A stretch of DNA of 64,000 bases from an uncultured Clostridia bacterium. Lineage in GTDB: Bacteria > Bacillota > Clostridia > TANB77 > CAG-508. The DNA lies in NCBI GenBank assembly GCA_944392455.1, contig CALXWP010000007.1, positions 43,559-107,558 on the forward strand, written 5' to 3'. Numbering within the stretch: the stretch's first letter is position 1; each line of letters opens with the position of its first letter. Both the position numbers and the translations under genes were made by a program. Below, one piece after another: positions 1-57,503 of this stretch. The notes under the pieces were generated by a model that saw nothing but the letters and a program-made list of their open reading frames with translations, was not told the origin of the DNA and did no database searches.

Positions 1-56
1 ACTATATAATATTAGGAGTTATTTTACACAAAATTATTTAAAAGAGGTATTACAAA

Positions 57-6443: not shown

Positions 6444-6445
6444 AT

Positions 6446-6775
6446 TTATTCCTCCTCACCTTCAGTTTTCATAACTATTGCACCAAATGGGCATACTTTT
6501 GCGCATACTCCACATCCTTTACAATAATCATAATTAAAATCTGTTCTCTTTTGATCTCCTCCTACTGGAATTGCGTCTTCTGGGCAAACAGGGAAACATA
6601 GACCGCATTGAATACATTTTTCCGGTATATATTCAGGTCTTACACTTCTCCAATCACCTGTTTTAAACTCTCTAGCATTTCCAGCTTCATATATATTTCC
6701 ACCAATTGTCATTTTGTCTGCTGGTGTATTTTTATCTATATTAGTCATTATTAGCTCCTTTCTATGCAAAAGCAT
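6446..6775 (-). CDS. porD: 2-oxoacid:ferredoxin oxidoreductase delta subunit (2x[4Fe-4S] ferredoxin)
   Basis: 109 aa. CIQCGLCFPVCP and CKGCGVCAKVCP motifs. Confidence 0.85.
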   Translation of the reverse strand: MLLHRKELIMTNIDKNTPADKMTIGGNIYEAGNAREFKTGDWRSVRPEYIPEKCIQCGLCFPVCPEDAIPVGGDQKRTDFNYDYCKGCGVCAKVCPFGAIVMKTEGEEE

Positions 6776-6777
6776 AA

Positions 6778-7359: not shown

Positions 7360-7485
7360 ATTAGTCTTAGCCTCCTTTATTTTGATACCTAAAGTATATA
7401 ACTTTATTGGGTCTTAAGTCAATATATTTTACCTAATCAGTCAGAACGTTTTTTCTTTATTTTTATGACATTTTTTTCATGTTCT

Positions 7486-13005: not shown

Positions 13006-13034
13006 ATTATATCACTTTTTTACAGTATTTTCAA
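13006..13034 (-). promoter_or_regulatory. Sigma-A promoter (TTGAAA, 17-nt spacer, extended -10 TGATATAAT) for the 12535..12954 gene
   Basis: Read on the minus strand. An inverted repeat tagactt-tagg-aagtcta lies between the promoter and the RBS agagaggg. Confidence 0.45.
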
Positions 13035-41328: not shown

Positions 41329-42696
41329 CTAATAACCTCTTTCTGTTCTTTGAGGAGCTCCATATTCTTCTGCAATTTCATCATGAATTGCTTCGATTTT
41401 TTCATCAGGAGTTTTTCCTCCTCTTTCATTATATCTTCGTACAAAATCATCAACATTAGAATGATCTTTTTCAGCTTCTTTTCTTAACGTTGTTTCTGAT
41501 CCATCTTCTAATACTATTATGTCATCTGCTGTTAATTGGTCATTACCTGCTGTATCATCCATATTTCTTAATTCTGTCTCTCCATCTCTTTCTATTTCTT
41601 CCTCTGATCTATCCAATTCATCTTCTATTTCTGTATTTTTAGTTTTATCCATTACCTCTCTAACTTCTCTAGTAGTTGGTCTTTGATTTTTTGTTTCGAT
41701 TGGTGCTGATAAATACCTTTCATCTTTATCTTTACTTAGATCTGCTCTTACATAATCAACTTCTAAAGTTCCATATTGTCCTACTCTAACTGAAAGCATT
41801 TCTTCTTGTCCATTTACTTTGCTTCTTCCATTAATTCTTACCATTCCTGCTACTTGTTCTTCTTGTACCACACTTCCATCTCTACTATTTATTGAAGTTA
41901 CAGTTTGCCCTGTTGTTGTTCCTTCTATATTTTGTAAACTATCTATAGTATGTACATTCCCATCTTTATCTAACCCAACAAATGAAAACCTACCATTTTT
42001 CCCCTTCGAATGATCAGAAAATACAACATTAACTTTAACAATTCCTTTTTCTTTTATTTCAGGAATCATATCTGCTAATGTCTCTGTTTGAGTAACTTTT
42101 GCATTTGGATCAATTTCCTGTTTTTCAGCTATCTTATCAAATTGGAGTTTTTGATTAGCTTTCATTGTAGAATATGCTTGGATATCTTCGGTTTCTAATA
42201 TTTTTGACATTTTATCCAATTCCTTATTTGATTGTTTTTCATCCAGTTCCTCTTTTGTTAAAACTAAATCTTCTTTTCCTAATTCTTCTGGAAGCTCAAA
42301 TTCAGCTTCATCTAAAGTTAATGTATCAAAATATTCTTTATTTACTTTTTCTAAATCCTCTAAAAATTCATGGTCAAATGTAACCTCTCCCATTTCGTTT
42401 ACAGTTGCTATTAATTTATTGTCTTTATCATATATTTCATAAGCTATTTTTTCCTGTTGGTCTTCATCTTCTCTAGATTTTGGTTTTTCTTGCTTTTTTT
42501 CGCTATCTTTGAGTTTAACAATATATGCATCATTTATAGCTAAGCCCGATCCTTTAAATTCAAAATCTCTATAATATCCAATATTATCTACTTCTTGATT
42601 TCTTGCTTCTAATTTTTCTGATATTTCTGCACGAAGATTTAACATATTATTAGTTACTTCATTTCTTTTCTTATCTTTCATATCTTCATCTCCCAA
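41329..42696 (-). CDS. Hypothetical acidic, highly charged soluble protein (last gene of the T4SS-like module)
   Basis: 455 aa. No TM segment, D/E/K-rich, no recognisable motifs. Confidence 0.4.
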   Translation of the reverse strand: MGDEDMKDKKRNEVTNNMLNLRAEISEKLEARNQEVDNIGYYRDFEFKGSGLAINDAYIVKLKDSEKKQEKPKSREDEDQQEKIAYEIYDKDNKLIATVNEMGEVTFDHEFLEDLEKVNKEYFDTLTLDEAEFELPEELGKEDLVLTKEELDEKQSNKELDKMSKILETEDIQAYSTMKANQKLQFDKIAEKQEIDPNAKVTQTETLADMIPEIKEKGIVKVNVVFSDHSKGKNGRFSFVGLDKDGNVHTIDSLQNIEGTTTGQTVTSINSRDGSVVQEEQVAGMVRINGRSKVNGQEEMLSVRVGQYGTLEVDYVRADLSKDKDERYLSAPIETKNQRPTTREVREVMDKTKNTEIEDELDRSEEEIERDGETELRNMDDTAGNDQLTADDIIVLEDGSETTLRKEAEKDHSNVDDFVRRYNERGGKTPDEKIEAIHDEIAEEYGAPQRTERGY

Positions 42697-42790: not shown

Positions 42791-44155
42791 TTACTCTACA
42801 TTAAATGACATTGTAAAATTTGTTCCTTCTCCTAGCTTAACTATAAATGTTTTTGTTATAGCTTGGCTGTTTGCATTATTTTTATCTGTAAATTTCGCAT
42901 CAAATATATATAGATCTCCGCTGTTTTGATAATTAGAAAATTCTACATTGTTAGATGTATAGAATGTATTTTTTACATATGTTTCAAAATCAGCTTCTGT
43001 AGCAAAGTTATTTTGCCTAAATGTTGCATCTAATTTATTATATACATATGTATAATCTCCATCATTTATTGCATCTACAATTTTTTGAGAATTTAATCCA
43101 GCCTTTTCAGCATCATTTGAACTATTATATTCTTCAAGAAAATCAGGCAAATCTATTGTATATGTATCTAAAACTACATCATAATTTGTAATATTAGTTT
43201 CTGTGAAAATATAATATTTACCATATTGATCAATACATATATACTCTTTCTTTCCATCTATTGCATTTACTTTATATCCTTGAATACTTGCAGTTTCAAT
43301 ATTTAACTTATTATCATTTACATATTGTAAAAAGTTCTCATAACTTCCAAATTTAGCATCCCTATATTCTTGATTTAATAAATTGTATGCATCTTCTGTA
43401 TGTTGCGTCATTTTTTCTCTATATTCAGAAAAATATTGTTTTGTAATATACTCTTCTGTTGCAGAAACATCTAGGAAGGTATTATAATCGTTTACTTCAA
43501 TATTTCCAGAATTTATATTTATGGCATCATAACTCATATTTTCATTATAATTATATTTTTCTAAAAAATCTTCTAGAAATATAGAATAAGTATTATTAGT
43601 ATAGTCTATTTTTATTAATAAATTAAATGGTTTATTATTTAGATTTGCTGTAACAAATGCTATTTTTATATTACTGCTTATATCATATGTTAAAACATTT
43701 ACTAAATTTAAATCATAAGAAACAGTTGCTTGAAAGTTTCCATTTTGGCTATATTCTTTTTGTTTTTCTATTATCATATTATTTTCTATTGCTAAATCAG
43801 AAATATATTGTGTATCTAATATATTCTTTATTGCCTCTGTTCCTTGTCGTTCTGATTGTGTTTTTGCATCTTCTAGTGAAATACCAGCTTTTACAATATC
43901 AACATATGAGTCACCATTTATTTGTTTTACATATACTAAATAATTATTCAAAATTTCCTTGATTGTATAATATGTTTTATAATCACTTACAACTGAAAAT
44001 CCCACATTTTCGCTACTTTGTGTATTTGTTGCGTTTTCAGCATTTTCTCCATCTTCTTGTGCATTCCCTCTTGTATTAAATATGATAACTGCAGCTATTA
44101 TTATAATTACAAGAAGAATAGTTAATAATATTATTATATTTTTTAATTTTTTCAT
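42791..44155 (-). CDS. Membrane-anchored extracytoplasmic protein (possible TcpC/VirB8-like)
   Basis: 454 aa. Single N-terminal TM, N/Y-rich ectodomain. Assignment rests on position in the module only. Confidence 0.35.
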   Translation of the reverse strand: MKKLKNIIILLTILLVIIIIAAVIIFNTRGNAQEDGENAENATNTQSSENVGFSVVSDYKTYYTIKEILNNYLVYVKQINGDSYVDIVKAGISLEDAKTQSERQGTEAIKNILDTQYISDLAIENNMIIEKQKEYSQNGNFQATVSYDLNLVNVLTYDISSNIKIAFVTANLNNKPFNLLIKIDYTNNTYSIFLEDFLEKYNYNENMSYDAININSGNIEVNDYNTFLDVSATEEYITKQYFSEYREKMTQHTEDAYNLLNQEYRDAKFGSYENFLQYVNDNKLNIETASIQGYKVNAIDGKKEYICIDQYGKYYIFTETNITNYDVVLDTYTIDLPDFLEEYNSSNDAEKAGLNSQKIVDAINDGDYTYVYNKLDATFRQNNFATEADFETYVKNTFYTSNNVEFSNYQNSGDLYIFDAKFTDKNNANSQAITKTFIVKLGEGTNFTMSFNVE

Positions 44156-44199: not shown

Positions 44200-47100
44200 T
44201 TAATGATTGAAATATGAGAAATGCATATAGTCTTTTAAACTGGTCCAATCTCCTCCCCAGTAAAATCCATGACGTTTCCATATATTTATAATTTCTTCAG
44301 TTACTGAATATGGATCTGATCCTGGACTATAATGACTTCCTACAACAGTACCATCAGCATATATACAGTAATTTTGCTCCGGGTTAACATCAAATGCATG
44401 TCCATAAGTATGAGCAGATTGTGGGAATGTTCCTCTAAATCCTGCATCTGATCCCCATTGCCTATAACTAATATCTCCACCAACAATCTTAAATCCTGCA
44501 TCTGCCATTTCTTTAAAGATTGCCTGTACTTCTGTCTTTAATTTTCTATGCATTGTTACATTCATTGTTTGACGATTTCCATTTGCATCTAGGTATTCTA
44601 CTGGAAATGTTTCTAAATATTGATTATTTTCTGCTTCTGAAGTAGGAACTCCATTACCATCATAAAGCCAATCAATTCTCGCCTGCTCTCCTTCTATACT
44701 TGCTGCTTCTCCTAATTGTGCACTTCCTGAAGTATGATTATCTTCCCATGCTTGATACCATTTTTTAGCATTATCATATCTTGCTGCAGTTATATCTTTT
44801 GATGCATTAAAGTTATTACTACTACTAAAGAATACTTCATAATATCTTCCAAAGTACCATGTAGCATATTCTAGATCTGTTTCGCTTGTTGAATTCATTA
44901 AAACATCTTTTACATCACTATAGCTTCCTTCTAATTCTTGCCATATAAATTCACATTGTGTTTCTACATCTGTCCAGTCCGTTCCTTTAGAATTTGCTAG
45001 ATTTTGTAGATTCTGGAATCTATCTGATATTGCCCATTGACATAAACCATTATGTGTGCCGTTTGTTGCTGCTGGATCAAAACTACTTTCTGCTTCTATA
45101 TTTCCCATGATAGCTGCTACTCCTGCAGGTGGCATACCTTTTGCTAAGAAGAAATCAAATATTTGTCCTTGAACTCCATCTATTCCACTTGATGTTCCAT
45201 AGCTTCCGTTTAAAGAACTAAAGTTAGCTGGATCAAATACCTTATCAAAATCAAATGAATCTATTCCATCAAACTCTCTTCCTGTTGCACAATAAATCAA
45301 ATATTTAGTTAAGTCAACCATATCAACTGTTTTTTCATTTTCTTCTAACATTTCGAATAGCCATTCTGGTGCACTTAATATATTATTTCTTGTGTCATAA
45401 TGTTCTCTATCTTGTAATAAAGTTACAAAATTCACTTCATCTGTTTTTGATTTTGGTTCATCTTTAGGCCTTATATCTTTAGGTGAAGAAGTATATTTTT
45501 GAGAATCTATTATATTATGATTTGTAACTGTTCCATCAAGTCCATAATAGTAATCTGTTAAACATGTTACTTCTGTATTTACTGTATCTTTATCACTATA
45601 GTTTGATCTTACACTTGCTTCATAATCAGCTGCTATTCCACACGGATCTTCATTTGGAACATCAGGCTCATCTGGACTATCCGGATATTCTCTATTTTGC
45701 TCTAGATCTGAAGGGTCTCCAGCTCCTGGATCTGTTGTTTCATTTGGTTGATATTCAAAATCTTGTGTATACTCTACAATCCATACATCAGCCTTTGTAA
45801 CACTTATATTTAGTGTATCTGTTGTATTTTTAGTCGTATGAACAATTGTATAATTTTTTAATATTTCTTCTGTACTTCCTTCTGTATTAGTTTCATCAAT
45901 ATTTCCACTTGTACTTGTTGACTCACCTGTATTTGGATCCACTTCAGTATCACTCCAACTACCTGTTACATGTATATCATGTGTATGTACTTTTGTTTTT
46001 CTAGTATATTCATATGTATCTATATCAGTTACTGTCTTTACATTATCATGAATAGTAATTTCTATTTCACTATCAAATACTAAATCAGCTATATCTAATC
46101 CAAAGTCTTTATCACGTCCCGCAACAATCCATGCCCATAAGTAGTCAAATGGCATTTGATATCCACTTACCATACTTTGATAATCTACTGTTTGTGCAGT
46201 CATAGTATAGGTAGTATTTGCTTCTATATAATCTGTTATTGGTTCTGGATCTACTGATCCATCTCCTCCTGCAACAGATTCTTCGAATCTCTCATTCCAT
46301 GTTGCTACTTTTACAACATATTTAGTTTTAGCATCTCCTCCACTGCCTATAGTTCCTGTACCACTACCCATTCCATTTTCATATTTGAATGATAATGGAT
46401 CTACTTTTACACCATTTTGTCTTGTTTCAAAGTGTACGTGTGGTCCTGTTGATGTTCCTGTATTACCAGATTTAGCAATTACTTGACCTTGTGTTACAGT
46501 ATCACCAACAGATACTAATAATTCACTGTTATGATAATATCTGGTTACAAATCCTCCGCCATGGTCAATTTCAATCATATTTCCTGCGGAACTGTCATAA
46601 CAAGATATTGTTACTGTTCCATCTTTAGCTGCATATACATTTGTTCCTGTTGGAACCCCTATATCTATAGCTCCATGGTCTGTTGATGCACCAGCTGTTG
46701 GAGCATCTCTTAATCCAAAGTAAGATGTTATAGTTGTTCCATCCGTTGGCCATTTTAATGTATCTGAACTTGAGCTTGAGCTATTATTATCATCGTCATC
46801 ATTATCATTATTTGTAGTATTATTATCATTAGCTTCTATTTCTGAGTCCACTCCAAAATTAGGGTTTTCAAAGTAACTTCCACCGTTAACTGCTTTTACA
46901 ACTCTTGAATTCCATTCTGGATGATTAGATGGATTTCCTGGATTCTCTTTAATGCCATACCATGAGTCTCTATCTACAACAAATTCTACAACACATTGAC
47001 CATCATTATGCCCCCATTGGTTACATCCTGGATCATTTTGATTTTTAATATCACCTATTATACATGGAAGAACTATTCCATTTTCTAGATAAAAATCAAT

Positions 47101-47964
47101 ATAATCTCCAACTTGTCCAAAAGTTGTAGTACATGCAATAACATAACGTCCATTTATAATTCCGAAACCTTCTTCATCAAAATTTTGACCTGCCATTTCT
47201 CTTAATCTATATTGATTTGAACTAGGAGCTGTTATTAACTGCCACCCCATATATGTATAATAATTACCAAAACCTTCTGGAATCTCTATTACTGTACCAG
47301 CTTCTATTGTACCTGCCATTATACTAGAAGTTGAATACTGTTTTTCTATAGTAAAGTGGCTTAATGCAGTATTTTTGTCTGCGTCAGATCCGCTTGCATT
47401 ATATGCTTCTATATATGAGTTAAAAACTTCAGGAGACACATAGGTCATTGTTGAAATTGTTCCATCTTCTTTTGCTCTTTTAAATTTGATAATACCTTGT
47501 GTTTCTGTAGAATCTACATCATTGTTTAAATTCTTCCAAAATTCTTCATCTAATGGTTCATCAATTTCATCTGCTGGTCTTGTATCAGGATAGTTTGTAA
47601 CTATTTCTGCGTTCATTAATCTTGCTAACTCTTGTGGATTGTCTAAATATTCATCAACTCTACTATTATTTTTTAACATTTCATCCCATAATTCCTGGGC
47701 TGACATTGTTGTTCTTATAGTTCCATCTTGATCAATAATTACATCCTGTGTATATTGTGTGACTGCATACATTACATTTCCCATGTCACCTTCTTTATAT
47801 GATCCATCTTGTCTAGTCATTTCATATCCTAAACCACACACAACAATAACTACTATTAAAACAATAGCCAATACTGGAGCTAATGCTCTCGCTGCTACTT
47901 TAGCTCCTTTTTTTAGTATTTTTTTCATTTGATATTTAACTTGTTCAAAACCATTTCCCATCAC
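44200..47964 (-). CDS. Tri-domain peptidoglycan hydrolase: TM anchor + M23 endopeptidase + lysozyme-like (phage-tail-lysozyme type) + M15 (VanY-like) peptidase
   Basis: 1254 aa. M23 motifs HGAIDIG...D and GNTGTSTGPHVHFE. Lysozyme-like block AAIMGNIEAESSFDP. M15 block SAHTYGHAFDVNP...GGDW...DYMHF. Confidence 0.75.
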   Translation of the reverse strand: MMGNGFEQVKYQMKKILKKGAKVAARALAPVLAIVLIVVIVVCGLGYEMTRQDGSYKEGDMGNVMYAVTQYTQDVIIDQDGTIRTTMSAQELWDEMLKNNSRVDEYLDNPQELARLMNAEIVTNYPDTRPADEIDEPLDEEFWKNLNNDVDSTETQGIIKFKRAKEDGTISTMTYVSPEVFNSYIEAYNASGSDADKNTALSHFTIEKQYSTSSIMAGTIEAGTVIEIPEGFGNYYTYMGWQLITAPSSNQYRLREMAGQNFDEEGFGIINGRYVIACTTTFGQVGDYIDFYLENGIVLPCIIGDIKNQNDPGCNQWGHNDGQCVVEFVVDRDSWYGIKENPGNPSNHPEWNSRVVKAVNGGSYFENPNFGVDSEIEANDNNTTNNDNDDDDNNSSSSSSDTLKWPTDGTTITSYFGLRDAPTAGASTDHGAIDIGVPTGTNVYAAKDGTVTISCYDSSAGNMIEIDHGGGFVTRYYHNSELLVSVGDTVTQGQVIAKSGNTGTSTGPHVHFETRQNGVKVDPLSFKYENGMGSGTGTIGSGGDAKTKYVVKVATWNERFEESVAGGDGSVDPEPITDYIEANTTYTMTAQTVDYQSMVSGYQMPFDYLWAWIVAGRDKDFGLDIADLVFDSEIEITIHDNVKTVTDIDTYEYTRKTKVHTHDIHVTGSWSDTEVDPNTGESTSTSGNIDETNTEGSTEEILKNYTIVHTTKNTTDTLNISVTKADVWIVEYTQDFEYQPNETTDPGAGDPSDLEQNREYPDSPDEPDVPNEDPCGIAADYEASVRSNYSDKDTVNTEVTCLTDYYYGLDGTVTNHNIIDSQKYTSSPKDIRPKDEPKSKTDEVNFVTLLQDREHYDTRNNILSAPEWLFEMLEENEKTVDMVDLTKYLIYCATGREFDGIDSFDFDKVFDPANFSSLNGSYGTSSGIDGVQGQIFDFFLAKGMPPAGVAAIMGNIEAESSFDPAATNGTHNGLCQWAISDRFQNLQNLANSKGTDWTDVETQCEFIWQELEGSYSDVKDVLMNSTSETDLEYATWYFGRYYEVFFSSSNNFNASKDITAARYDNAKKWYQAWEDNHTSGSAQLGEAASIEGEQARIDWLYDGNGVPTSEAENNQYLETFPVEYLDANGNRQTMNVTMHRKLKTEVQAIFKEMADAGFKIVGGDISYRQWGSDAGFRGTFPQSAHTYGHAFDVNPEQNYCIYADGTVVGSHYSPGSDPYSVTEEIINIWKRHGFYWGGDWTSLKDYMHFSYFNH

Positions 47965-48093: not shown

Positions 48094-49050
48094 TTAGTTC
48101 AATGGTATTTCAAGTCTTTCATAATTATAGTTATAAAGTATGTCATAATTTGGTGCAATTTTTAAAAATACTATTTTATTTATAACCTTTTCTGAACTAT
48201 ATTTATTATAATACTTTATAGTAATTTCTTTAGTTTCATTTTGGCTTAATGTTAATTCTGGTTCACTTAATTCTTGAGAATATGCACCATACTGTATACC
48301 ATTTTCATCTTCTAAGTACATAGAATCAGTATATTCTCTATCATCTATAATAATTTCATCACTTGTCTTATTTGTTACACTAAATGTATATGTTTGATAA
48401 TCCATATATGTATCACTTCTTAATACCGTCATGCTTATTAAGTCATTTTCTCTTGTTTTATTTATTTCTTCTCTTCCTAAATAACTATTAATATTTAACT
48501 TATATTGTCCATCATCAGTTTCTATTACCCTTATATAATCTTGAATTACATTATCTTCCGAATAAACTCCTGTTGCTAAGAAATCTTCTGTAAATTCTAC
48601 TTTATATATATTTGCAAGCCAGTTTTCTACTGAAACTTTTCTTATATTTCCATTAAAAACCTTATCATAATAATTTGTAGTAAAAATTTCAACAGTATTA
48701 TACATTTCCTCTTTACATTCATCTGATAGCATATTATATGCTTCATTTATATTTTTTGCATTACAATATTCTGTAAATTGTTCTATAATTCCTGCCATAC
48801 TTACTTGTTTACTTGTAAGTTCTTCTCCTGAAATTACAGAATCCGCTGATTCCATTGTTATAGTATTAAAATTATTATTTATTGTACCTGTCACGCTAAA
48901 TAACCTATCGCCACTTTCATCATCATTATTGCTATGTTTCATTACATAAACTAAAATGATATTTATAAGTACTATGACAAGTGCAAAAAATAGTATTAAT
49001 AATATTTTTGGTTTATTCCTTATATACCACTCCGCAATTTTTTTTCTCAT
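48094..49050 (-). CDS. Hypothetical membrane-anchored protein (T4SS-like module)
   Basis: 318 aa. N-terminal TM. No recognisable motifs. Confidence 0.4.
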   Translation of the reverse strand: MRKKIAEWYIRNKPKILLILFFALVIVLINIILVYVMKHSNNDDESGDRLFSVTGTINNNFNTITMESADSVISGEELTSKQVSMAGIIEQFTEYCNAKNINEAYNMLSDECKEEMYNTVEIFTTNYYDKVFNGNIRKVSVENWLANIYKVEFTEDFLATGVYSEDNVIQDYIRVIETDDGQYKLNINSYLGREEINKTRENDLISMTVLRSDTYMDYQTYTFSVTNKTSDEIIIDDREYTDSMYLEDENGIQYGAYSQELSEPELTLSQNETKEITIKYYNKYSSEKVINKIVFLKIAPNYDILYNYNYERLEIPLN

Positions 49051-49140: not shown

Positions 49141-51975
49141 TTATATTGCACCTGTAATCTCCCTTACTCCATCAACATATTTCTTAACATCTTGTGGACT
49201 TAATCCTTTTTCTCCTAATCTAGACTCTAAGTCTTTAATTTTCTTGTTATCGTTTCCTACTTCACTTGCAAGGCCTGCAAGTAATACTCTTTCTTTACTA
49301 GCTCTATCATTTCCAAAGCCTTCTGCTTTCATTGCTTTTATAATCATCTCATCATCGGTTATACCATTTGCCCTATATTCTTGGGCTTCTTTCATAACTT
49401 TTTTGATATCTCCTTTTGGAATTTCTAATTTATCAGCATATAATTTTTGTCTATCCTTATCTTTCATAGCAGCTTTATCTTCTAAGTCTCTTTGTCTTTG
49501 TTTTTCAGCTTCTTCACCTTTGGTAGCGATAGTATATGTACTTGCAGCACTAGAAGCTGCTTCTTTTACAAAATCATCAGCACTTCCTACGGCTCCTAAT
49601 GCTCCACTTCCTGCAGCCCATCCGGCTGCAGCACCTGCTGCTCCGTATCTCAATATATTATTATCATCTCCTGAAGCTAAACCTCCTGCTACACCTAAAG
49701 TCGCTGCTGTCGCTGCTAAAGTTCCTTTTACTGCTGCTTTTCCAACTCTAGGTGCTGCATATTTTAATCCTTGCATTCCGACAGCTCCAACACCTTTTGC
49801 AATATTTCCAGCAGCTTTTGCTCCTTGTACCATATGTCCACCTAATGTCCTAGCTGAGTTCCTAATTGGTTTTGGTATTGATGTTCTAATTTTGTTTGCT
49901 CCACTTTGTACTGTATTTGCCATAGCTCTTACAGATTTAGCGCCTGCAGCTCCCAAATCTCTAGCAACCCTTACTGGTACAGTATTAGGTGCCCAATTAG
50001 CAAATCTATGTGCTACTGCTCTAGATTTATCTGAAACTTTATTCATTCTTGCTTGCAATCTGCTTCCTTGATAGCTATCACGTAAATATGTTCCTACGCC
50101 TCTTGTATCAGTTTCTCTAATTCTAGCCATTCCTTCTGCAATTTCTCTTTCTCTCCATTCTCTTTGCTCTTCTGCATTCATATCTTCTGGATATGTTGAA
50201 TTTATTCTATCTCTTAAAGCTTGTTGCTCTGCTGCAATTCTATCTCCTTCATCAGATCTTCCACTTGCATTTCTTTGTCTTTGATCTGCCAAACTATTTT
50301 GAGCAGATAATTGTCTTTGACCATTTGCCCCTTGTGAATCTGCATCTTGACCATTTTGATTTCTTCCGGTTATTTGATTCATTAAGTCTCTAGTCTTAAT
50401 TTTTCTAGCTGATGCTGCCGCACCAGAACCAGCTCCTCCACTTCCAGCTTTTCCACCAGCATTTCCTTTTTTGCTTCCAATACCTGCTATCTTCTTTATT
50501 TGACTTATACCAGCCATTGCTAAAGCTCCACCTATAGCTGATCCATTTGCATCTAATGTTGACGCTTTATCAAATCCAAAGAACCTTCTCATTATTTTTT
50601 CTGCTTGGAATATAAATCCTATTGCAACAATAGCATATATCATATTTACAGTTCCATCTCCACCGTCTCTTGCTGCTATGCTAATCGCAGATCCAACTAA
50701 CATTGTGTATAAAATCAAATGGAGTGGTTGTATTAATAAATTAAATACATATTCTTTTAACCACATATTAAATGCTTGTGCATTTCCATCCCCCATTTTA
50801 TCTAATGGATATGTCATAGCAACCAATGGTGCTATCATTGTTAAAAATGCTAACATTATTAATCTCTTTAGGTATACTACTAAAAATGCTATTGTATAAA
50901 TTACTAATATTAGGAATAAAACTGTATATCCTAATTGTCTTAATAATTCATTATCTTCTGTCGCACCTTCATCTAATTGTAATTGAATTCTAACTTGTCC
51001 CATTAGATTTGTAGGCCAATAATATTCGCTACTATCTTCATTTTCTATTAATCCATTTTCCACAAAGAATTCTGACGCATCTACTACGGATGCCTCTTTT
51101 TCTCCACTTTCTTCACTTATAACTTCTACTCTGTAATCTTCCTCTTTTAAATTAGGTAATGTAATAATTGTAGGTGTATTTAGTTCATTTATACCTTCTG
51201 AAATTGCTTCTACAACAGTAGTAGCAAAAGCCATTATATAATGCATAAAAAATAATATACACATTGCTACAATCCAGCTAAATAATTTTTCTTTATATTT
51301 TGCTTTGTCTTGTGCTGCACTGCTTGTAACTATTCTAATACCTATATATAGTAATACTGATAGTAAAACAACTAATGCAAAGTTTCTAAGTGTTAAATAC
51401 CAGCTTGAAATAGTACTTTGTAATTGAGAGGCTGTTGACACTTGTTCTGTTGATGTATCTCCATTTATTGCAGTAATTTGTTCATATTCATTAGGATTAA
51501 AGAAGTTTACATCCAAAAGTGCTATTTTATTTGCAAATATTTCTTCAGGACTTATAACATATATTGGTAAATAAACTGTTGGTGGCAACATATCTGCTGT
51601 TATTTTATATGCTGCATATGCTCCAATACCAGCTGCAACTAATGCAACTAAACTAAGTCCACCTGTAATAATTGCTGTACCTACAACTATTGCTATACCA
51701 ACTATCCATGCAACAACTGCGGGAAGTGTATCTCCTATTTCAGTGGATACTTTCGTCAGAGAACTTTCCATTCCAAATAAAATTCCCTGAATTAAATTCA
51801 TTATACCATCACCAATAGCTAATAATAAGTCAACTATTGGTGAAAGTAATGTTCCTCCTATTACTTCTGCAACGCCTGCCTGACTGATAGTTGGAGCTGA
51901 AAAGTTAAATAGTATTACTATTACTAAGATTATTGCTATCTTTAGTATCATGCTTTTACTTTTTAATATTTCCAT
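49141..51975 (-). CDS. VirB6-like polytopic membrane protein (TcpH/ConG/Orf15 class) with ~450-aa Ala/Gly/Arg-rich C-terminal extension
   Basis: 944 aa. Signal/TM then more than six TM helices in the first ~490 aa. The C-terminal half is hydrophilic and low-complexity (GNAGGKAGSGGAGSGAAASARK...). Sits immediately after the VirB4 gene. Confidence 0.5.
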   Translation of the reverse strand: MEILKSKSMILKIAIILVIVILFNFSAPTISQAGVAEVIGGTLLSPIVDLLLAIGDGIMNLIQGILFGMESSLTKVSTEIGDTLPAVVAWIVGIAIVVGTAIITGGLSLVALVAAGIGAYAAYKITADMLPPTVYLPIYVISPEEIFANKIALLDVNFFNPNEYEQITAINGDTSTEQVSTASQLQSTISSWYLTLRNFALVVLLSVLLYIGIRIVTSSAAQDKAKYKEKLFSWIVAMCILFFMHYIMAFATTVVEAISEGINELNTPTIITLPNLKEEDYRVEVISEESGEKEASVVDASEFFVENGLIENEDSSEYYWPTNLMGQVRIQLQLDEGATEDNELLRQLGYTVLFLILVIYTIAFLVVYLKRLIMLAFLTMIAPLVAMTYPLDKMGDGNAQAFNMWLKEYVFNLLIQPLHLILYTMLVGSAISIAARDGGDGTVNMIYAIVAIGFIFQAEKIMRRFFGFDKASTLDANGSAIGGALAMAGISQIKKIAGIGSKKGNAGGKAGSGGAGSGAAASARKIKTRDLMNQITGRNQNGQDADSQGANGQRQLSAQNSLADQRQRNASGRSDEGDRIAAEQQALRDRINSTYPEDMNAEEQREWREREIAEGMARIRETDTRGVGTYLRDSYQGSRLQARMNKVSDKSRAVAHRFANWAPNTVPVRVARDLGAAGAKSVRAMANTVQSGANKIRTSIPKPIRNSARTLGGHMVQGAKAAGNIAKGVGAVGMQGLKYAAPRVGKAAVKGTLAATAATLGVAGGLASGDDNNILRYGAAGAAAGWAAGSGALGAVGSADDFVKEAASSAASTYTIATKGEEAEKQRQRDLEDKAAMKDKDRQKLYADKLEIPKGDIKKVMKEAQEYRANGITDDEMIIKAMKAEGFGNDRASKERVLLAGLASEVGNDNKKIKDLESRLGEKGLSPQDVKKYVDGVREITGAI

Positions 51976-51984
51976 ATTCTCCCC

Positions 51985-54030
51985 CTAATACTTATTGTCC
52001 GTTCTTTTTCCTTTTTGTACTAATTTATTTAAGTTTGTTTCAACGAATTCAAATTCTTTTGCCGTAGGTCTTATTTGAATAATTGCACTATCTCCTCCTA
52101 CTTTTAATAATCCTTCTCCTTTTAAACAAGTTACTAGGAAATTAGCTTCTCCTTCACTTAATTTAAATACCTCTTTTAAGTATTGTATTTCAGCTTTATC
52201 TTGTGCTAAAAATAGTTTTGTATCTGATGAAGTCAAAACTGCTTGTGCTTCTGGTTTTTCATAGAAATCTTGGAATCTTTGTGAAATAATTGCAAGTGAT
52301 ACATTTCTTTTTCTAGCACGTCTTGCCATAGTATTTAAGAAATCTACGGCTTCTGGGAATGGAAGTAACATCCACGCCTCATCAACTAAAACTCTTTTCT
52401 TAGCAGCTTTTGTTCTATCTTCACTATTCTTTTTAACATATTTTTCCCATATCCACTCTAGCAATATTTGTTGTGCAAGTGGTCTTGCAAATTTTTCTTC
52501 AAGTTGTGATATGTCAAGATTGATGAATAAAGCTCCCTCTAATAAATCAAATGTAGACTGTCCATCAAAATATGCCATTTGTCCATCATATTCTCTTATG
52601 TATTGTTTCATAACTTTTAATAGATAACTATAATGGAAATTATAATCAGGGTTTTTGTTGTCATCTGCTTTCTTTTGTATTCTTCTATACCAAGAACCTA
52701 TAGTTGGCATATCCTTTTTCTTTCTACCTAACATATTACCAGATAAGCTTCCTCCTGTTTGAGCTGCTTCAAATAAACTGTTAGGATCACTATTTATTCC
52801 ATGTGCAGCATATTCTTCTGCAACAGATTCTGCAATAATTTGTTTTGTAAGCTCATTAACTTCTTCACTTCTTGTACTACCTTTAGCCATTGTAAGTAAA
52901 GCTTGTGTAACGTCCTCTACTTTGTTTTCTACATTCAATACTAATTTATCTCTACCTGTAATTTCATCTTTCACAATTTCTGTTTCAACATCAAATATAT
53001 TTATAACTGTTTTTGATGTTGGACTTATAACGACATTAATTCCTCCTAAACTTTCTGCCACTATGCTATATTCACCTTCTGCATCCAAAGCTAAACTTTG
53101 TACCCCCATTAGAACTGCAGACCTTGAAATTAATGTTTTCATTGTAACTGACTTTCCTGCTCCAGACTTAGCAAATATAACCATATTATAATTTGTAAGT
53201 GAGCTATGAAAATTATCAAAAAGCACTGGTACTCCAGTTTGTTTATTTATTCCTAAAGGTACTCCTGTAGAATGTCCAACTTCTGATGTTGTAAATGGAA
53301 ATACTGTTCCCATTGATCTTCTATCAAATGTATGTGTTTTCTTTATTTTATCATCCATTAATGGTAAATTTGATTTAAATGCTTCTTCTTGCATTCCCCA
53401 TGCACTCTTGATAGAAACTAATGATTTAGACATTTCTGTTGATAAAAGTTTTGTATATCTTTCTAGGTCTTCTAAATTATATGCAAATAAAGTTGAAACA
53501 ATTGAAGCTTCATATAATTTGTTAAATCCTGCTGCAATTTCATCTCTTAGCTCTTCTGCTTCTAATCTTTTTTGTCCTAGATCTGATTCTCTATTGATAT
53601 TTCCTCTATCAGCTGCAACTATTCTTTCTGTTTCTATTTCATTAATTACTCTGTTTAATTCATTTTGAGATCTTGATTCTGGAATTGGATTAATATATAT
53701 TGATGTATTAATATCTCCAAATAAGTACATATCTCTAAATAGTTCTGGGAATGTACACATTCTTGGAAGTGTTGATACAAAGAAGCTTCTTGCATATCTA
53801 GTTACATTAGAGATTATCTCTAAATGGTCTATGTTAGTTGCGTCAATTCCAGAAGGAGCTATAAGCTCTTTTATTGTTTTTTTCTTTAAAATTTGAAATT
53901 CATCTGGTTTTGTATAATCATTAAGCTGTCTTCGTTGTTCTTCTTCTCTTTGTTTTTTCTTTGCCATCTTCTTTTGTACCTCCTTCTTTACTTTGTTTTT
54001 TCTTTGCATTTCTCTCTGCTTTTTCTTCAT
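51985..54030 (-). CDS. VirB4-family type IV secretion ATPase (TcpF/ConE/TraE-like)
   Basis: 681 aa. Walker A FAKSGAGKSVTMKT, Walker B RVLVDEAWMLL, N-terminal region TRYARSFFVSTLP typical of Gram-positive VirB4. Confidence 0.85.
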   Translation of the reverse strand: MKKKQREMQRKNKVKKEVQKKMAKKKQREEEQRRQLNDYTKPDEFQILKKKTIKELIAPSGIDATNIDHLEIISNVTRYARSFFVSTLPRMCTFPELFRDMYLFGDINTSIYINPIPESRSQNELNRVINEIETERIVAADRGNINRESDLGQKRLEAEELRDEIAAGFNKLYEASIVSTLFAYNLEDLERYTKLLSTEMSKSLVSIKSAWGMQEEAFKSNLPLMDDKIKKTHTFDRRSMGTVFPFTTSEVGHSTGVPLGINKQTGVPVLFDNFHSSLTNYNMVIFAKSGAGKSVTMKTLISRSAVLMGVQSLALDAEGEYSIVAESLGGINVVISPTSKTVINIFDVETEIVKDEITGRDKLVLNVENKVEDVTQALLTMAKGSTRSEEVNELTKQIIAESVAEEYAAHGINSDPNSLFEAAQTGGSLSGNMLGRKKKDMPTIGSWYRRIQKKADDNKNPDYNFHYSYLLKVMKQYIREYDGQMAYFDGQSTFDLLEGALFINLDISQLEEKFARPLAQQILLEWIWEKYVKKNSEDRTKAAKKRVLVDEAWMLLPFPEAVDFLNTMARRARKRNVSLAIISQRFQDFYEKPEAQAVLTSSDTKLFLAQDKAEIQYLKEVFKLSEGEANFLVTCLKGEGLLKVGGDSAIIQIRPTAKEFEFVETNLNKLVQKGKRTDNKY

Positions 54031-55162
54031 TTATACTATTTATTGCATCTTGTGCAACATCATAACCAACAGCATCAGTATTTTGTTCTATAATTAATTT
54101 AGCTAAATTATCTATTAGATTATCCATGTTGTTTTCTTTCTTCTGTAAAGCTTTTTCTTTTGCTGATTGAGCTTCAATTACTTTTTCATTGGCTTTATTA
54201 AATGCTTCTTCTTCTATCTTCTCGTCTAATATTCTCATCTTCTTATCTAATACATCTTCTCCAGTTGAATATAGTTCGTCATATCCTGCTCTTAATGCTT
54301 TATCTAACCCGAAGACTTCTTGTTCATCTCTGTTATATGCTACATAAAGTAATTCAACTAATTCTTCTGAAATAAGTATTCTTCCATTAACTTCGCATCC
54401 TGCTAAAGTTCTTATAATTGATTGACATCTTGTATATAATTCTGAGAAAGCCATATTTGTTATTTCTTCTTTATCGAATTCATCAGTTCCTGAATCTTCA
54501 GGTATGTAAGGAACAATTATATAATAGTTCTGATTTAAAACATTTTTATTTAAACTCATCTTTTCTGTTGAATATATAATATCTTTTCCATACTCTGTAA
54601 GATTCCTTTGTTTTGTAAGTTCATAATACACTTGATCAAGCTGTTCTTTTGTGTAATTTCCTGAACTCTTCATTTCTCTATATCTCATTTCTTGTTTATT
54701 ATAATCATCTTCTATTTGTTTTACTCTATCTCTATAACCCTGTAAACTATTTTCTAGATTGATTGTTCTAGTTTGGACATATAACTGTACTGGATGTCTA
54801 ATAGTATTTAAGAATTGTATAAATCCTTCTTCAACAGCATTTTTTTCAACTTCTGACATTAAATCATAGTTTATTCCTTGGCATTCAATAACCATTATAT
54901 ATTTAAATCCATCTTTTTGTATTATCATATTATCTTCAATTCTATCAAACTCCATAAAGTCCATTACAGATTGAACTGCAAATGTTTTTGATTTTGGGAT
55001 TTCTTTTTCTTCTTCTCCAGTAGAAATTCTATCTGATTTTCCAACTTTCTTTTCTTTTTTGTTTTTTGTAGAAAAATATACTACTACAAGGGCTACTAAT
55101 AATATAATAATTAAAATTATTATAAACATTAAAATCATTCTTAAAGTTTCCATACTATCCAT
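53921..55162 (-). CDS. Hypothetical T4SS-associated membrane protein (N-terminal TM, coiled-coil, basic tail)
   Basis: 413 aa. Overlaps the annotated VirB4 start by up to 110 nt. Faint resemblance to a VirB4 N-terminal-domain segment (IIQKDGFKYIMVIECQGINYDLMSEVE). Confidence 0.4.
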   Translation of the reverse strand: MDSMETLRMILMFIIILIIILLVALVVVYFSTKNKKEKKVGKSDRISTGEEEKEIPKSKTFAVQSVMDFMEFDRIEDNMIIQKDGFKYIMVIECQGINYDLMSEVEKNAVEEGFIQFLNTIRHPVQLYVQTRTINLENSLQGYRDRVKQIEDDYNKQEMRYREMKSSGNYTKEQLDQVYYELTKQRNLTEYGKDIIYSTEKMSLNKNVLNQNYYIIVPYIPEDSGTDEFDKEEITNMAFSELYTRCQSIIRTLAGCEVNGRILISEELVELLYVAYNRDEQEVFGLDKALRAGYDELYSTGEDVLDKKMRILDEKIEEEAFNKANEKVIEAQSAKEKALQKKENNMDNLIDNLAKLIIEQNTDAVGYDVAQDAINSINEEKAERNAKKKQSKEGGTKEDGKEKTKRRRTTKTA

Positions 55163-55532
55163 TCTTTTCTTCCTCCTTATAAATATATATTTTTCTTCCT
55201 TTTGTTCTAAATTTTATGGCTCTTTTTATTATATCATCTATATTTTCTCCACCTGTTTTTTGTGCAAATTTAAATTTTCCTAAATTTGGCATTTTTAAAG
55301 TTCCGATTACAAATCCAATTAAAGCAAAAATTACTGTTATTACTATACCTACCATTGTTAGGCCAAATGCAGAAAATAAGAAATAAAATATAAGTCCACA
55401 AGATCCTCCAATTACAGTATACATCATACTTTTACCTGTGAAAATAAACAAAATTCTACCCTCACCTTTTACACTTCTTGGCAAGTTATATGTCCCCATA
55501 TATGCTTCCTCCTTCGTTAATCTTTTATCCAT
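55155..55532 (-). CDS. VirB3/TcpE-like small two-TM protein
   Basis: 125 aa. Two adjacent TM helices after a short cytoplasmic N-terminus. Directly upstream of the VirB4 region. Confidence 0.5.
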   Translation of the reverse strand: MDKRLTKEEAYMGTYNLPRSVKGEGRILFIFTGKSMMYTVIGGSCGLIFYFLFSAFGLTMVGIVITVIFALIGFVIGTLKMPNLGKFKFAQKTGGENIDDIIKRAIKFRTKGRKIYIYKEEEKNG

Positions 55533-55579
55533 ATTAATATAATTTATATTATAGCAGATTTTTTCCTAAAAAGATACAA

Positions 55580-55616
55580 AAAAAACAAAAAAAGTGCATT
55601 TGTAATGCACTTTTAA
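55580..55616 (-). terminator. Intrinsic terminator after the pilin gene array
   Basis: On the minus strand: aaagtgcattacaaatgcacttt, then a long T-run. Confidence 0.55.
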
Positions 55617-55656: not shown

Positions 55657-56022
55657 TTATGCTGTTATACTTTGAGACATTGCTATTACTGCTTTGGCTA
55701 TAGCAGATGCACCAAATATAATTACAGCACCAACTAAATATGGGATCATAGTCTTCTTGTATTCAGCTTTTTCTGCAGCACTACCCATCATGTATTTAAT
55801 ACCTAATACTAATAATACCACTACTGCTACTATAATACCAACTGTTGTAATAATACTAATAATATTTTTACCAACATTTTGTATACCTGTTGTATTTGCA
55901 TTTCCTCCTGTCATTAATGAATCAACTAATCCTGAATCAGTTGCATATGCAGGTACTGCTAATACTGCAAGTAGCATTATTGATAATAAAATTATTGATA
56001 ATATTTTTACTGACTTTTTCAT
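55657..56022 (-). CDS. VirB2/TrbC-like pilin paralog 3
   Basis: 121 aa. Signal peptide (AYA-TD), TM1, charged loop GIKYMMGSAAEKAEYKK, TM2 YLVGAVIIFGASAIAKAV. Compare A. tumefaciens VirB2 ...ISWMFGRAS...IVIMFGASFLG. Confidence 0.6.
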   Translation of the reverse strand: MKKSVKILSIILLSIMLLAVLAVPAYATDSGLVDSLMTGGNANTTGIQNVGKNIISIITTVGIIVAVVVLLVLGIKYMMGSAAEKAEYKKTMIPYLVGAVIIFGASAIAKAVIAMSQSITA

Positions 56023-56106
56023 AATTTCCTCCTTTTATGTATATTAAAAATATATGTAATATCTCTTTTTGAGATAATGTTAAAATCATTAATAATATAT
56101 GTTTTG

Positions 56107-56496
56107 TTATTGTGTTGCATTTAGCATTTCTACAACTATTTTCCAGATTGCAAATGCACCAAATATTACAACACATCCTACTATATATGGTACAAGTAAT
56201 TCTTTTGTTTCCGCCTTTTGAGTTGAACTTCCTGTCATCATTTTTATTCCTATAATTAGTCCTACGATAACAGCAGCTACAATTCCTACTGCTAATAATA
56301 TGTTGTACATTACATTTGAAACATTTTTAAAACTATCCTCATCCATTACAGTATTTTCGGTTGTTCCCGAATTTAAAAAATTTTGTGCACCTCCAAAAAT
56401 TTTTCCTGGAGTTATATCATTTGCAGAAACTATTGTAATGTTAGCTATTATTATAAATATTATAATTATACTAAATGCTATTTTTAATGTTTTCAT
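56107..56496 (-). CDS. VirB2/TrbC-like pilin paralog 2
   Basis: 129 aa. Same architecture (GIKMMTGSSTQKAETKE...YIVGCVVIFGAFAIWKIV). Confidence 0.6.
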   Translation of the reverse strand: MKTLKIAFSIIIIFIIIANITIVSANDITPGKIFGGAQNFLNSGTTENTVMDEDSFKNVSNVMYNILLAVGIVAAVIVGLIIGIKMMTGSSTQKAETKELLVPYIVGCVVIFGAFAIWKIVVEMLNATQ

Positions 56497-56515
56497 CTTT
56501 ACTCCTTTTTAATAC

Positions 56516-56893
56516 TTACAAAGCATCAGCCACATCAATGATGACTGCTATGATTTGGCTTAAAGCAAAAAACAGTACTACACCAATTATATACGCTTTC
56601 ATACTCTTTTTATATTCAGCTTTTTCTTCAATGCTTCCAACCATATATTTTATTCCTAATGCCAGCAAAGCAACTACAGTAACTATAATTCCAATATATC
56701 TTATATAATCAACTAATGTCGCAGCAGCATCTGTAATTTCTTTTACATCATTTGTATTCATTTGTGGTGGTTCCCAACTGCTAGGATTTATAGTTTTAGG
56801 AACATCTGCATTAGACTGATTTGGAATCATTAATAGTATTACTAGAATAATGAATAATATAGTCAATATATGCTTCAATAGTTCTTTTTTCAC
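56516..56893 (-). CDS. VirB2/TrbC-like pilin paralog 1 (GTG start)
   Basis: 125 aa. Same architecture (GIKYMVGSIEEKAEYKK...YIIGVVLFFALSQIIAVI). RBS aaagaggtg. Upstream TTGAAA, 17-nt spacer, TATAAT promoter. Confidence 0.6.
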   Translation of the reverse strand: MKKELLKHILTILFIILVILLMIPNQSNADVPKTINPSSWEPPQMNTNDVKEITDAAATLVDYIRYIGIIVTVVALLALGIKYMVGSIEEKAEYKKSMKAYIIGVVLFFALSQIIAVIIDVADAL

Positions 56894-57030
56894 TTTTTCA
56901 CCTCTTTATTACATTATAATATATGAATTTACAATTTTCAACTTTTTTATGTATTATTTTATTATAATATTAGCATATCTTTTGTATATTGTCATCTTTG
57001 TAATACAAATATCACAAAAATGTAACATTT
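56894..57030 (-). promoter_or_regulatory. Promoter and control region of the pilin array
   Basis: TTGAAA attgtaaattcatatat TATAAT consensus promoter. Repeated ttgtaat/attacaa heptamers further upstream. A similar cluster (ttgtaatattattgtaatgtttctgtaat) lies at 55620-55660. Confidence 0.4.
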
Positions 57031-57034
57031 TTGT

Positions 57035-57090
57035 AATAAAAGAAAGGAGTACCGAAGTACCCCTATTCCACAAGAAAGCATCAGCTTTCT
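57035..57090 (-). terminator. Tandem hairpins terminating the 57093..57503 gene
   Basis: Minus strand: agaaagc-tgat-gctttct, then ggggtac-UUCG-gtactcc followed by uuucuuuuauu. Confidence 0.5.
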
Positions 57091-57092
57091 CA

Positions 57093-57503
57093 TTAATCTT
57101 CGTCATCGTCATCTTCTTCGATCTCGAAATACTTAATGTCCCGCCACATGTGCTTGACATATAAGCAAATCACAGCCATTGCCAGTAAACTTCCTATAAT
57201 CATTAATGCATACACGATGATATTAATATCGCTATTTACATTTCCGATAGTAAAGGCAATGAACCTTGTCAAAGGCAAAGTTATGGCCCAGCCAATCACA
57301 TTTCCAACTATTGTTGGTTTTGTAGTGCCAGTTCTGGTAGGCATTGCAGCATTTTCGATTGCTGCTTCAATTGCTATGCCGCCAAGAATCATAACACAAA
57401 GTAGTAGAGACCACTTAGGGTCAAGAACAGGTCCCATCAAGAGACCAAAAACAGTGGTTGTTGTCAAGGGTAAAACTACCCATAAGATAGTCCGATGAAT
57501 CAT
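57093..57503 (-). CDS. Hypothetical four-TM membrane protein with poly-acidic tail (higher GC)
   Basis: Track ORF 57093..57623. Preferred start MIHRTILW (RBS aaaggag, 8 nt). Promoter TTGCAA, 17-nt spacer, gTGaTATAAT at 57564-57592. C-terminus EIEEDDDDED. Confidence 0.55.
   Translation of the reverse strand: MIHRTILWVVLPLTTTTVFGLLMGPVLDPKWSLLLCVMILGGIAIEAAIENAAMPTRTGTTKPTIVGNVIGWAITLPLTRFIAFTIGNVNSDINIIVYALMIIGSLLAMAVICLYVKHMWRDIKYFEIEEDDDDED

Follow-up and report, generated by a model that had tools for sequence, protein, structure and literature searches.

Three tandem VirB2/TrbC-family pilin genes in a conserved chromosomal type IV secretion locus of uncultured gut Clostridia

We analysed a 64 kb stretch of the genome of an uncultured Clostridia bacterium (hereafter the window; G+C content 28.1%) in which three tandem genes, called pilA, pilB and pilC here, encode small membrane proteins. 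Family matching and gene context indicate that the three proteins belong to the VirB2/TrbC family of pilins, and comparison with related loci, inspected in other genomes 10 kb to either side of the gene for the ATPase VirB4, indicates that they represent three ancient, non-redundant orthologous groups. Judged from the genes, the architecture of the Patescibacteria type is present in Clostridia: a conserved chromosomal type IV secretion system (T4SS) with three pilins and without DNA-transfer genes nearby. The three pilin genes are as follows.

56516..56893, minus strand: pilA, a VirB2/TrbC-type pilin of 125 amino acids (aa), orthologous group A, with a GTG start (TrbC 37.6 and T4SS_pilin 37.3 bits)
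56107..56496, minus strand: pilB, a VirB2/TrbC-type pilin of 129 aa, orthologous group B, with a distinct loop, GIKMMTGSSTQKAETKE
55657..56022, minus strand: pilC, a VirB2/TrbC-type pilin of 121 aa, orthologous group C (TrbC 52.7 bits)

The genes are transcribed from 56893 towards 55657, and the three open reading frames (ORFs) of 121-129 aa that an earlier note on this DNA had listed were all found in these places on the minus strand. Each is preceded by a Shine-Dalgarno sequence (AGAGGTG for pilA, AAGGAG for pilB and AAGGAGG for pilC). The description of the array in the same note as tandem, divergent paralogs with one architecture also held. Pairwise alignment gave 36-38% identity among the three proteins, and hydropathy analysis indicated in each of them an N-terminal hydrophobic signal segment and two transmembrane (TM) segments, the common layout being signal peptide, variable segment, TM1, charged loop and TM2. 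Cleavage sites of the Ala-x-Ala type are readable (between AYA and TD, VSA and ND, and SNA and DV), and the Ala at position -1 is near-invariant among 102 pilin homologues. The columns G-I-K-x-M-x-G-S-x3-K-A-E-x-K, located between the two hydrophobic helices, are invariant in all three pilins. The core of the loop motif proposed earlier was thereby recovered, but its KK ending does not extend to pilB, where the loop ends in KAETKE, and the proposed TM2 ending (I/V)IFGAxAI is not found in pilA, which has VLFFALSQI instead.

Based on the comparison with Pfam, pilC and pilA scored above the gathering cut-offs of both TrbC/VirB2 (PF04956, cut-off 27.9 bits; 52.7 and 37.6 bits, respectively) and T4SS_pilin (PF18895, cut-off 26.6 bits; 30.8 and 37.3 bits), and pilB scored just under each of them (26.2 and 25.1 bits). 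The E-values of the three pilins were 5e-14, 2.6e-9 and 9.5e-6. As pilB is 38% identical to pilC, it was assigned to the TrbC/VirB2 family as well. These scores, together with the location directly upstream of the genes for PrgI/VirB3-like, TrsD/TraC-like and VirB4 proteins, agree with the VirB2/TrbC identity given in the earlier note. The competing assignment which that note had considered, a better match to proteins of the holin or immunity type, found no counterpart: scans with PHROGs (holin and other phage families) and PADLOC (defence) gave no family competing for the pilins. Sub-threshold NCBIfam matches of the pilins were to the 'pilin-like conjugal transfer protein' of a mycoplasma integrative and conjugative element. 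A profile of the 102 homologues weakly aligned the R388 pilin TrwL (PDB 8s6h) over its whole mature length (E = 0.086), and its top matches in the PDB were designed transmembrane helices. In the AlphaFold2 model of pilC (predicted local distance difference test, pLDDT, 80.5) helices span residues 2-21, 45-79 and 82-120, and the latter two form a helical hairpin with a two-residue turn, G80-S81. The variable segment contains a short helix in this model, and the charged EKAEYKK opens the second helix of the hairpin. A gene for a TraF-like cyclase/peptidase was not noticed in the cluster, in a search that was not exhaustive.

Next to the pilin genes we identified three transcription signals, which point to two transcription units: the pilin operon, with a strong promoter and a terminator, and the machinery operon, with a promoter of its own.

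56913..56941, minus strand: sigma-70-type promoter of the pilin operon, TTGAAA-17-TATAAT, 11/12 matches, the best in the region
55580..55614, minus strand: intrinsic terminator of the pilin operon, AAAAGTGCAT-tacaa-ATGCACTTTT and a T-run, with an 11-pair stem at 55614..55590
55548..55556, minus strand: extended -10 promoter element of the machinery operon, TGCTATAAT, between the terminator and the PrgI gene

The promoter that had been predicted for the array was thus found again (56941..56913), and its -10 element ends 19 nt ahead of the GTG start of pilA. The conservation of these signals was determined in 65 related loci, each of which has three or more pilin ORFs upstream of PrgI. The pattern TTGA[AC]A-16..18-TA[TA]AAT was present 5' of the array in 44 of the 65 loci, and in 51 when a looser pattern was used. 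A hairpin (free energy, dG, <= -7) with a T-run was found 3' of the last pilin in all 65 loci, a level that about 1% of shuffled sequences reach, and the sequences of the terminator stems differ between lineages. Since a second terminator (57064..57045) closes the gene upstream of the array, the pilin array is insulated on both sides. The motif TGnTA[T/C]AAT occurred at the equivalent spot between the terminator and PrgI in 63 loci. The claim of a terminator ahead of the machinery genes therefore stands for the whole set, whereas read-through into the assembly genes, which the earlier note had seen as part of the arrangement, may occur but is not needed, because the machinery genes have their own conserved promoter (TGnTATAAT). 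Within the array, the pilB-pilC spacer (56023-56106 in the window) mostly measures 64-108 nt across the loci and the pilA-pilB spacer often just 10-20 nt. A conserved internal promoter was sought in the pilB-pilC gap and no consistent motif was found there; a small hairpin, ATCTC-n-GAGAT, was present in 5 of the ten pilB-pilC gaps that were printed.

Exactly three tandem pilins were found in 59 of the 65 loci and four in the remaining ones, and in every locus the pilins were located directly upstream of VirB3-TrsD-VirB4. Taken with the Pfam E-values and the terminators of all 65 loci, this recurrence is far from what chance would give. Pilin triplication had been called unusual for a Firmicute; this is true in comparison to the literature and to the plasmid relatives, but within the clade three pilins are the rule. 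When the conserved cores were compared across species, the pilin at the same position was the nearest neighbour in 53/59 cases for A, 57/59 for B and 59/59 for C. This argues for three ancient orthologous groups rather than copies that were recently duplicated or shuffled. The hypervariable parts of each group are the signal peptide and the first 25-45 mature residues; the hairpin is conserved, most strongly so in pilC, in which the loop and TM2 are nearly invariant. Overall pilC is the most conserved of the three pilins and pilA the most variable.

The groups also differ in how they are extended. Over the 59 three-pilin loci pilC is never extended (82-146 aa), and extensions were found solely at positions A and B, either N-terminal ones of 240-270 aa (position A included) or C-terminal ones of about 150 aa. 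In solved VirB2 pili both termini are outside (per the preprint on Gram-positive VirB2-like proteins, ter Beek et al.), and extensions at either end would therefore fit surface display. One related lineage, with the locus adjacent to spoIIR, encodes four pilins, and in one of these two modules are naturally fused. In an exhaustive hidden Markov model (HMM) search of 1.84 billion representative proteins, 5909 family members were detected at E <= 0.001, of which 3335 had E <= 1e-10. The best matches have three, four or five pilin modules behind one signal peptide, all in a single polypeptide. Such poly-pilins of 2-5 modules (P0121, 450 aa, at 801-2153 of L095; P0122; P0124; P0123, at 373-1170 of L097; P0005, at 10001-10657 of L010) are encoded upstream of PrgI, a TraC-like gene and VirB4 in related clusters. 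The natural fusions suggest, indirectly, that different pilin modules are neighbours within one assembly. The five-module poly-pilin is intriguing because solved conjugative pili are five-start helices.

To describe the distribution, VirB4 was searched for in one genome per species, which gave 143 relatives, and the best 80 of these are described here. All 80 are uncultured Clostridia of the gut, in samples from chickens, rabbits, mice and humans, among them 'Clostridium sp. CAG:567, 780, 389 and 575'; VirB4 is 79-99% identical across these 80 species. Two related closed chromosomes (OZ007016.1 and OZ006978.1) measure 1.57 and 1.70 Mb. The cluster occupies an identical chromosomal site, behind M16-M16-Spo0E, in at least 49 species, and the identity of VirB4 to the window co-varies with that of the M16 peptidases (rho = 0.91), as expected for vertical descent. 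We conclude from this conserved position and co-divergence that the cluster is chromosomally fixed and vertically inherited in a clade of uncultured gut Clostridia.

The proteins of the cluster were found to differ widely in conservation. The median identity to the window was 86% for VirB4, 61-71% for the M16 peptidases and about 33% for the envelope-exposed proteins. The pairwise ratio of nonsynonymous to synonymous substitutions (dN/dS) was 0.01-0.06 for VirB4, 0.08-0.31 for the peptidases and 0.08-0.30 for the pilin cores (0.11-0.19 for the pilB core). The variable pilin segments gave 0.4-3.1, on 23-36 codons at near-saturated dS; together with their hypervariability within the groups, this supports the diversification of the exposed N-terminal segment that the earlier note had suggested. 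These ratios indicate very strong purifying selection on VirB4 and fast evolution of the surface-exposed parts. The VirB4 of one relative (L008, 12052-14034) is 99% identical to that of the window in protein and 91% in DNA, with the M16 genes at 81-83% DNA identity, which points to a constraint unusually strong for a T4SS ATPase. A hypervariable pilin island within a single species was considered and rejected, as this 99%-VirB4 locus belongs to another species by its M16 DNA. Two observations were made on individual relatives. In L005 an IS21-family element (rve transposase and IstB, 6402-8396) separates the Spo0E-like gene from the pilin array, which is itself intact. In the spoIIR-adjacent relatives L010 and L011 (12970-14926) the VirB4 region was called as 2-3 shorter ORFs (294 and 376 aa), which could reflect frameshifts, pseudogenisation or assembly errors.

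Downstream of the pilin array the following genes were identified.

55155..55499, minus strand: PrgI/VirB3-like protein with two TM segments (Pfam PrgI 31.1 bits, cut-off 27)
53921..55162, minus strand: TrsD/TraC-like protein of 413 aa with one N-terminal TM segment (sub-threshold NCBIfam TrsD and VirB4_plasma 54-246; precomputed Pfam PF26593, TraC-like)
51985..53967, minus strand: VirB4 ATPase of 660 aa (Pfam P-loop_TraG, AAA_10 and DUF87; NCBIfam)
49141..51975, minus strand: polytopic membrane protein of 944 aa in the VirB6 position (seven hydrophobic segments)
48094..49050, minus strand: bitopic protein of 318 aa with an N-terminal TM segment and an outside domain (hydropathy; position kept in 67 loci, about 34% identity)
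44200..47964, minus strand: membrane-anchored cell-wall hydrolase of 1254 aa (M23 113.5, Phage_lysozyme2 101.4 and M15_4 69.8 bits; TM 20-52)
42791..44155, minus strand: bitopic protein of 454 aa with a large outside domain (hydropathy; in 58 loci, about 33% identity)
41329..42696, minus strand: acidic soluble protein of 455 aa, the last gene before dacA (no TM segment, no Walker A motif)

The mechanically called ORF of the PrgI/VirB3-like protein begins at 55532, and its likely start is 55499 (114 aa, as also on metagenome contigs), with the ribosome-binding site AAGGAGG. The domain of the TrsD/TraC-like protein is the counterpart of the N-terminal region in long VirB4 proteins. VirB4 itself matched the CD1110-family (198 bits), the Mbov_0397-family and positions 281-890 of VirB4_plasma in NCBIfam, and in a Walker A scan it was the sole protein of the cluster with this motif. 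The 944-aa protein has a long low-complexity C-terminal tail. At residues ~183-258 (GIRIVTSSAAQDKAKYKEK...) it contains a pilin-like hairpin, which matched Pfam T4SS_pilin below the threshold (17.7 bits, residues 183-244), and an HMM of the pilins derived from the window matched the 944-aa orthologue in nearly every related locus (17-36 bits). Pilins could dock on this built-in hairpin, or it could prime their polymerisation. Comparison of the N-terminal profile of the 944-aa protein with PrgH and with the PDB gave nothing significant. The hydrolase is, by its domains, the functional counterpart of VirB1/PrgK. The 318-aa protein had no family match in the scans run; it is possibly VirB8-like, and by topology both it and the 454-aa protein are candidates for this role. 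The 455-aa protein, likewise with no family match in the scans run, was detected in 14 loci at a coverage above 60%, and it is uncertain whether it is part of the secretion system.

The cluster is flanked by dacA and a cytidine deaminase gene on one side and by a Spo0E-like gene, two M16 peptidases and, on related contigs, rpsU on the other. At 57093-57503 (minus strand), between the Spo0E-like gene and the pilin promoter, a gene with its own terminator encodes a small protein (136 aa on metagenome contigs) that crosses the membrane several times and has an acidic tail; it may belong to the system. Relatives have a gene of similar size (131-175 aa) at this position, the sequence of which diverges very fast. 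The rest of the window is likewise chromosomal in content, with housekeeping and other genes such as holB, lgt and those for signal peptidase I, a 2-oxoacid:ferredoxin oxidoreductase, two-component systems, a giant GH94 protein and thioester-domain adhesins. The latter are two giant surface proteins of 1947 and 1444 aa (26842-32685 and 33022-37356, minus strand) with an N-terminal thioester domain, DUF11 repeats and a SpaA-like domain; judged from these domains they are probably covalent adhesins and would fit an attached lifestyle. The GH94 protein (1750 aa, 13031-18283, minus strand) also has glucoamylase-like domains and resembles a cyclic beta-1,2-glucan synthase or phosphorylase. After it comes a 964-aa protein without family match (18270-21164, minus strand). 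The window ORFs scanned (at least 100 aa, outside other genes) showed neither a relaxase nor a coupling protein or integrase domain.

The explanation that we favour, and to which we attach moderate confidence, is that the three proteins are pilins of a chromosomally fixed Gram-positive T4SS of the MPF-FATA-like type with no DNA-transfer module nearby. The prepilins would be inserted by Sec, cut by signal peptidase I after the conserved Ala and held in the membrane as helical hairpins with the charged loop (GSxxEKAEYKK) in the cytoplasm. VirB4, VirB3 and the TrsD-like protein would then extract the pilins onto a VirB6-like platform that bears its own pilin-like hairpin, and the pilins would be assembled into a tube that crosses the wall at an opening made by the three-domain hydrolase. 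The lumen of this tube would be lined by the loops, and both termini would point outward, as is the case in solved VirB2 pili; because of this orientation the N-terminal 25-45 residues could vary freely and grow into whole domains. As the most conserved pilin, and the one that is never extended, pilC is likely the major subunit. The other two, pilA and pilB, may be co-assembling accessory subunits (base, tip or decoration) and not interchangeable antigenic variants. Since neither a coupling protein nor a relaxase is encoded nearby, a contact filament or conduit to other cells or to a host is favoured over conjugation, and by analogy with what has been proposed for the pilin-array T4SS of Patescibacteria we infer this to be the likeliest function.

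Several points weigh against this explanation. No filament has been seen, and the organisms are uncultured. A coupling protein or relaxase could be encoded elsewhere in the genome, as the inspection covered 64 kb of this genome and, in the others, 10 kb to either side of VirB4. The VirB6-like protein is a candidate by position, by topology and by weak, sub-threshold NCBIfam matches to TraJ and pLS20_p028, and the roles given to A, B and C come from conservation and length alone. The high dN/dS of the variable segments was obtained on few codons close to saturation. A Foldseek search of the pilC model against the PDB returned nothing at E <= 0.001, the matches being generic helical hairpins such as ATP synthase c subunits and designed bundles, although this is uninformative on pilin identity because a helical hairpin is too generic a fold. 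Finally, polypeptides with as many as five fused modules might be more compatible with a closed ring or a membrane-embedded channel than with a long helical filament.

The last of these points leads to the view that there is no extended filament at all and that the pilins build no more than a ring in the membrane or a short channel across the wall; some Gram-negative T4SSs need VirB2 although they make no pili. A ring could be closed by fusion proteins with four or five modules, the VirB6-like protein carries an embedded pilin-like hairpin, and no pilus has been visualised on Gram-positive cells expressing a T4SS (ter Beek et al. preprint). We nevertheless find such a structure distinctly unlikely, since a separate, strong and clade-conserved promoter and terminator for the pilins fit a subunit needed in large excess, and termini that evolve rapidly and can bear large outward extensions point to exposure beyond the wall. 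Among the alternative functions the main one is DNA import (competence), in which the VirB2 filament would take up DNA as in ComB of H. pylori or the archaeal Ced system. The window contains no coupling protein or relaxase, ComB and Ced are systems with VirB2-like proteins that lack a coupling protein (December 2025 review), and the cluster is chromosomal and vertically inherited, all of which would suit import. We consider it unlikely, because genes of the ComEC, ComEA and DprA types were not found in or beside the cluster, and the fast-evolving, domain-accepting surfaces of the pilins suggest recognition of a partner and not binding of a generic polymer.

Conjugation would require that the cluster is the mating-pair-formation module of a conjugative element or of a chromosome-mobilising system with its coupling protein and relaxase encoded elsewhere. 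Its nearest plasmid-borne VirB4s (42% identity) do occur in identical gene order on clostridial plasmids, and VirB2-like proteins were reported to be essential for Gram-positive conjugation (ter Beek et al. preprint). However, the cluster keeps one chromosomal site in at least 49 species and co-diverges with housekeeping genes, integrase, relaxase and coupling protein were not found within the 64 kb, VirB4 is better conserved than the adjacent core genes, and the plasmid relatives carry one pilin and not three. A conjugative role of this kind is thus very unlikely. That the pilins are unrelated small membrane proteins (holins, bacteriocin-immunity proteins or similar), which resemble VirB2 through hydrophobic composition alone, can be regarded as effectively refuted. 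The generic hairpins of Foldseek and the designed transmembrane helices among the top PDB profile matches are what such proteins would give, but two of the three pilins exceed the curated TrbC and T4SS_pilin thresholds of Pfam, no PHROG holin or PADLOC match was obtained, and in the 65 loci the genes are always directly upstream of VirB3-TrsD-VirB4.

The favoured reading, pilins of a chromosomally fixed T4SS, can be taken further, into a bolder proposal that we hold to be possible but rather unlikely. The three dedicated pilins would form a heteropolymeric VirB2 tube in a domesticated T4SS on which these small-genome gut Clostridia depend, and the up to five modules per polypeptide in related lineages would perhaps correspond to one per protofilament of a five-start pilus. 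The tube would link the cell to bacteria or to a host for acquisition or exchange, and the system would be the Firmicute counterpart of the essential system of Patescibacteria, possibly near its evolutionary source.

The findings matter in several ways. Pilins that belong by sequence to the classical TrbC/VirB2 family occur in true Clostridia, a group long thought to be without them. The loci from at least 59 species constitute a natural data set on the organisation of multi-pilin T4SS filaments, and the natural fusion proteins predict which pilin subunits touch. The cluster forms a bridge between the conjugative T4SSs of Firmicutes and the enigmatic system of Patescibacteria, and it points to an unstudied surface structure on gut bacteria that are widespread in humans, mice, rabbits and chickens.

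No paper describing this three-pilin T4SS of Clostridia was found in the literature. A 'TANB77 pilin' paper was considered as a description of the array and rejected, as it concerns the Tad/Flp pilus (CpaF, TadB/C and type IV-like pilins), which is unrelated to VirB2; no Tad/Flp cluster was found in the window. In comparison to the classical VirB2/TrbC pilins (VirB2 of A. tumefaciens, TrbC of RP4 and TrwL of R388), the window pilins share the Pfam family, the long signal peptide, the two-helix hairpin and the short charged loop. They differ in that the mature protein has about 95-105 aa, owing to the extra variable N-terminal 25-45 aa, and in the monoderm envelope. Among plasmids, C. botulinum pINGR16-02E1 and C. 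beijerinckii p1 have the same order as the window, with genes for a pilin-like protein, a PrgI-like and a TrsD-like protein, VirB4 (42%), a VirB6-like protein and a hydrolase, and their pilin-like protein has the loop and TM2 motif of the window. Unlike the window, these plasmids bear a single pilin-like gene (138 aa), their hydrolase has a C39 peptidase, and integrases are encoded nearby. A tblastn search of pilC against PLSDB plasmids gave no match, and the plasmid pilin-like genes were found solely via the context of VirB4.

Gram-positive T4SSs have been described as lacking VirB2, with the exception of Patescibacteria (2025 genomic survey; December 2025 review). Recently, cryptic VirB2-like proteins with almost no sequence homology to known VirB2 were reported on Gram-positive conjugative plasmids, typically with one functional copy each; in each of 16 example plasmids with several candidates, a single candidate gave a pilus in modelling (ter Beek et al., bioRxiv December 2025). 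The PrgF/PrgH system of Enterococcus pCF10 resembles the window in having a small two-TM protein with a charged loop, encoded beside VirB6, VirB3 and VirB4, and its pilus was modelled on a VirB6 pentamer. However, PrgF has 75 aa, pCF10 has a coupling protein and a relaxase, and no similarity was found between the profile of the window pilins and PrgF with hhalign (probability 0.3%). As the proteins of the preprint had been overlooked because of their near-absent homology, the window pilins are much closer to classical VirB2 in sequence. The Trw system of Bartonella is also without a coupling protein and has tandem variable copies of VirB2 (trwL) and VirB5 (trwJ), which were proposed to form variable adhesive pili and not to serve substrate translocation (December 2025 review). 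In contrast to the window it is Gram-negative, with an outer-membrane core and VirB5, and its copies are read as host-range variants, whereas the pilins described here are orthologous groups across species.

The closest described analogue of the cluster is found in Patescibacteria (Saccharibacteria, for example Ca. Southlakia epibionticum and Ca. Nanosynbacter lyticus TM7x). There, arrays of 2-11 divergent VirB2 genes lie beside VirB4, TrsD, VirB3 and VirB6, mostly without a relaxase (2025 genomic survey), and in one species the pilin array is essential (December 2025 review). The identity within these arrays has a mean of 25% and a maximum of 54%, as compared to 36-38% in the window. The two systems differ in phylum, the window belonging to Clostridia with sporulation genes next door, and in the fixed trio of orthologous groups and the large three-domain wall hydrolase of the window. 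A VirD4-like gene is listed for Ca. S. epibionticum (December 2025 review) and none is present in the window locus, and an epibiotic lifestyle is not known for the window clade. Because the organisms are Clostridia, the match is one of function and architecture and not of clade membership. What the two have in common is an MPF-FATA-like set of a monoderm bacterium, a tandem array of divergent VirB2 genes, a chromosomal location and a reduced genome.

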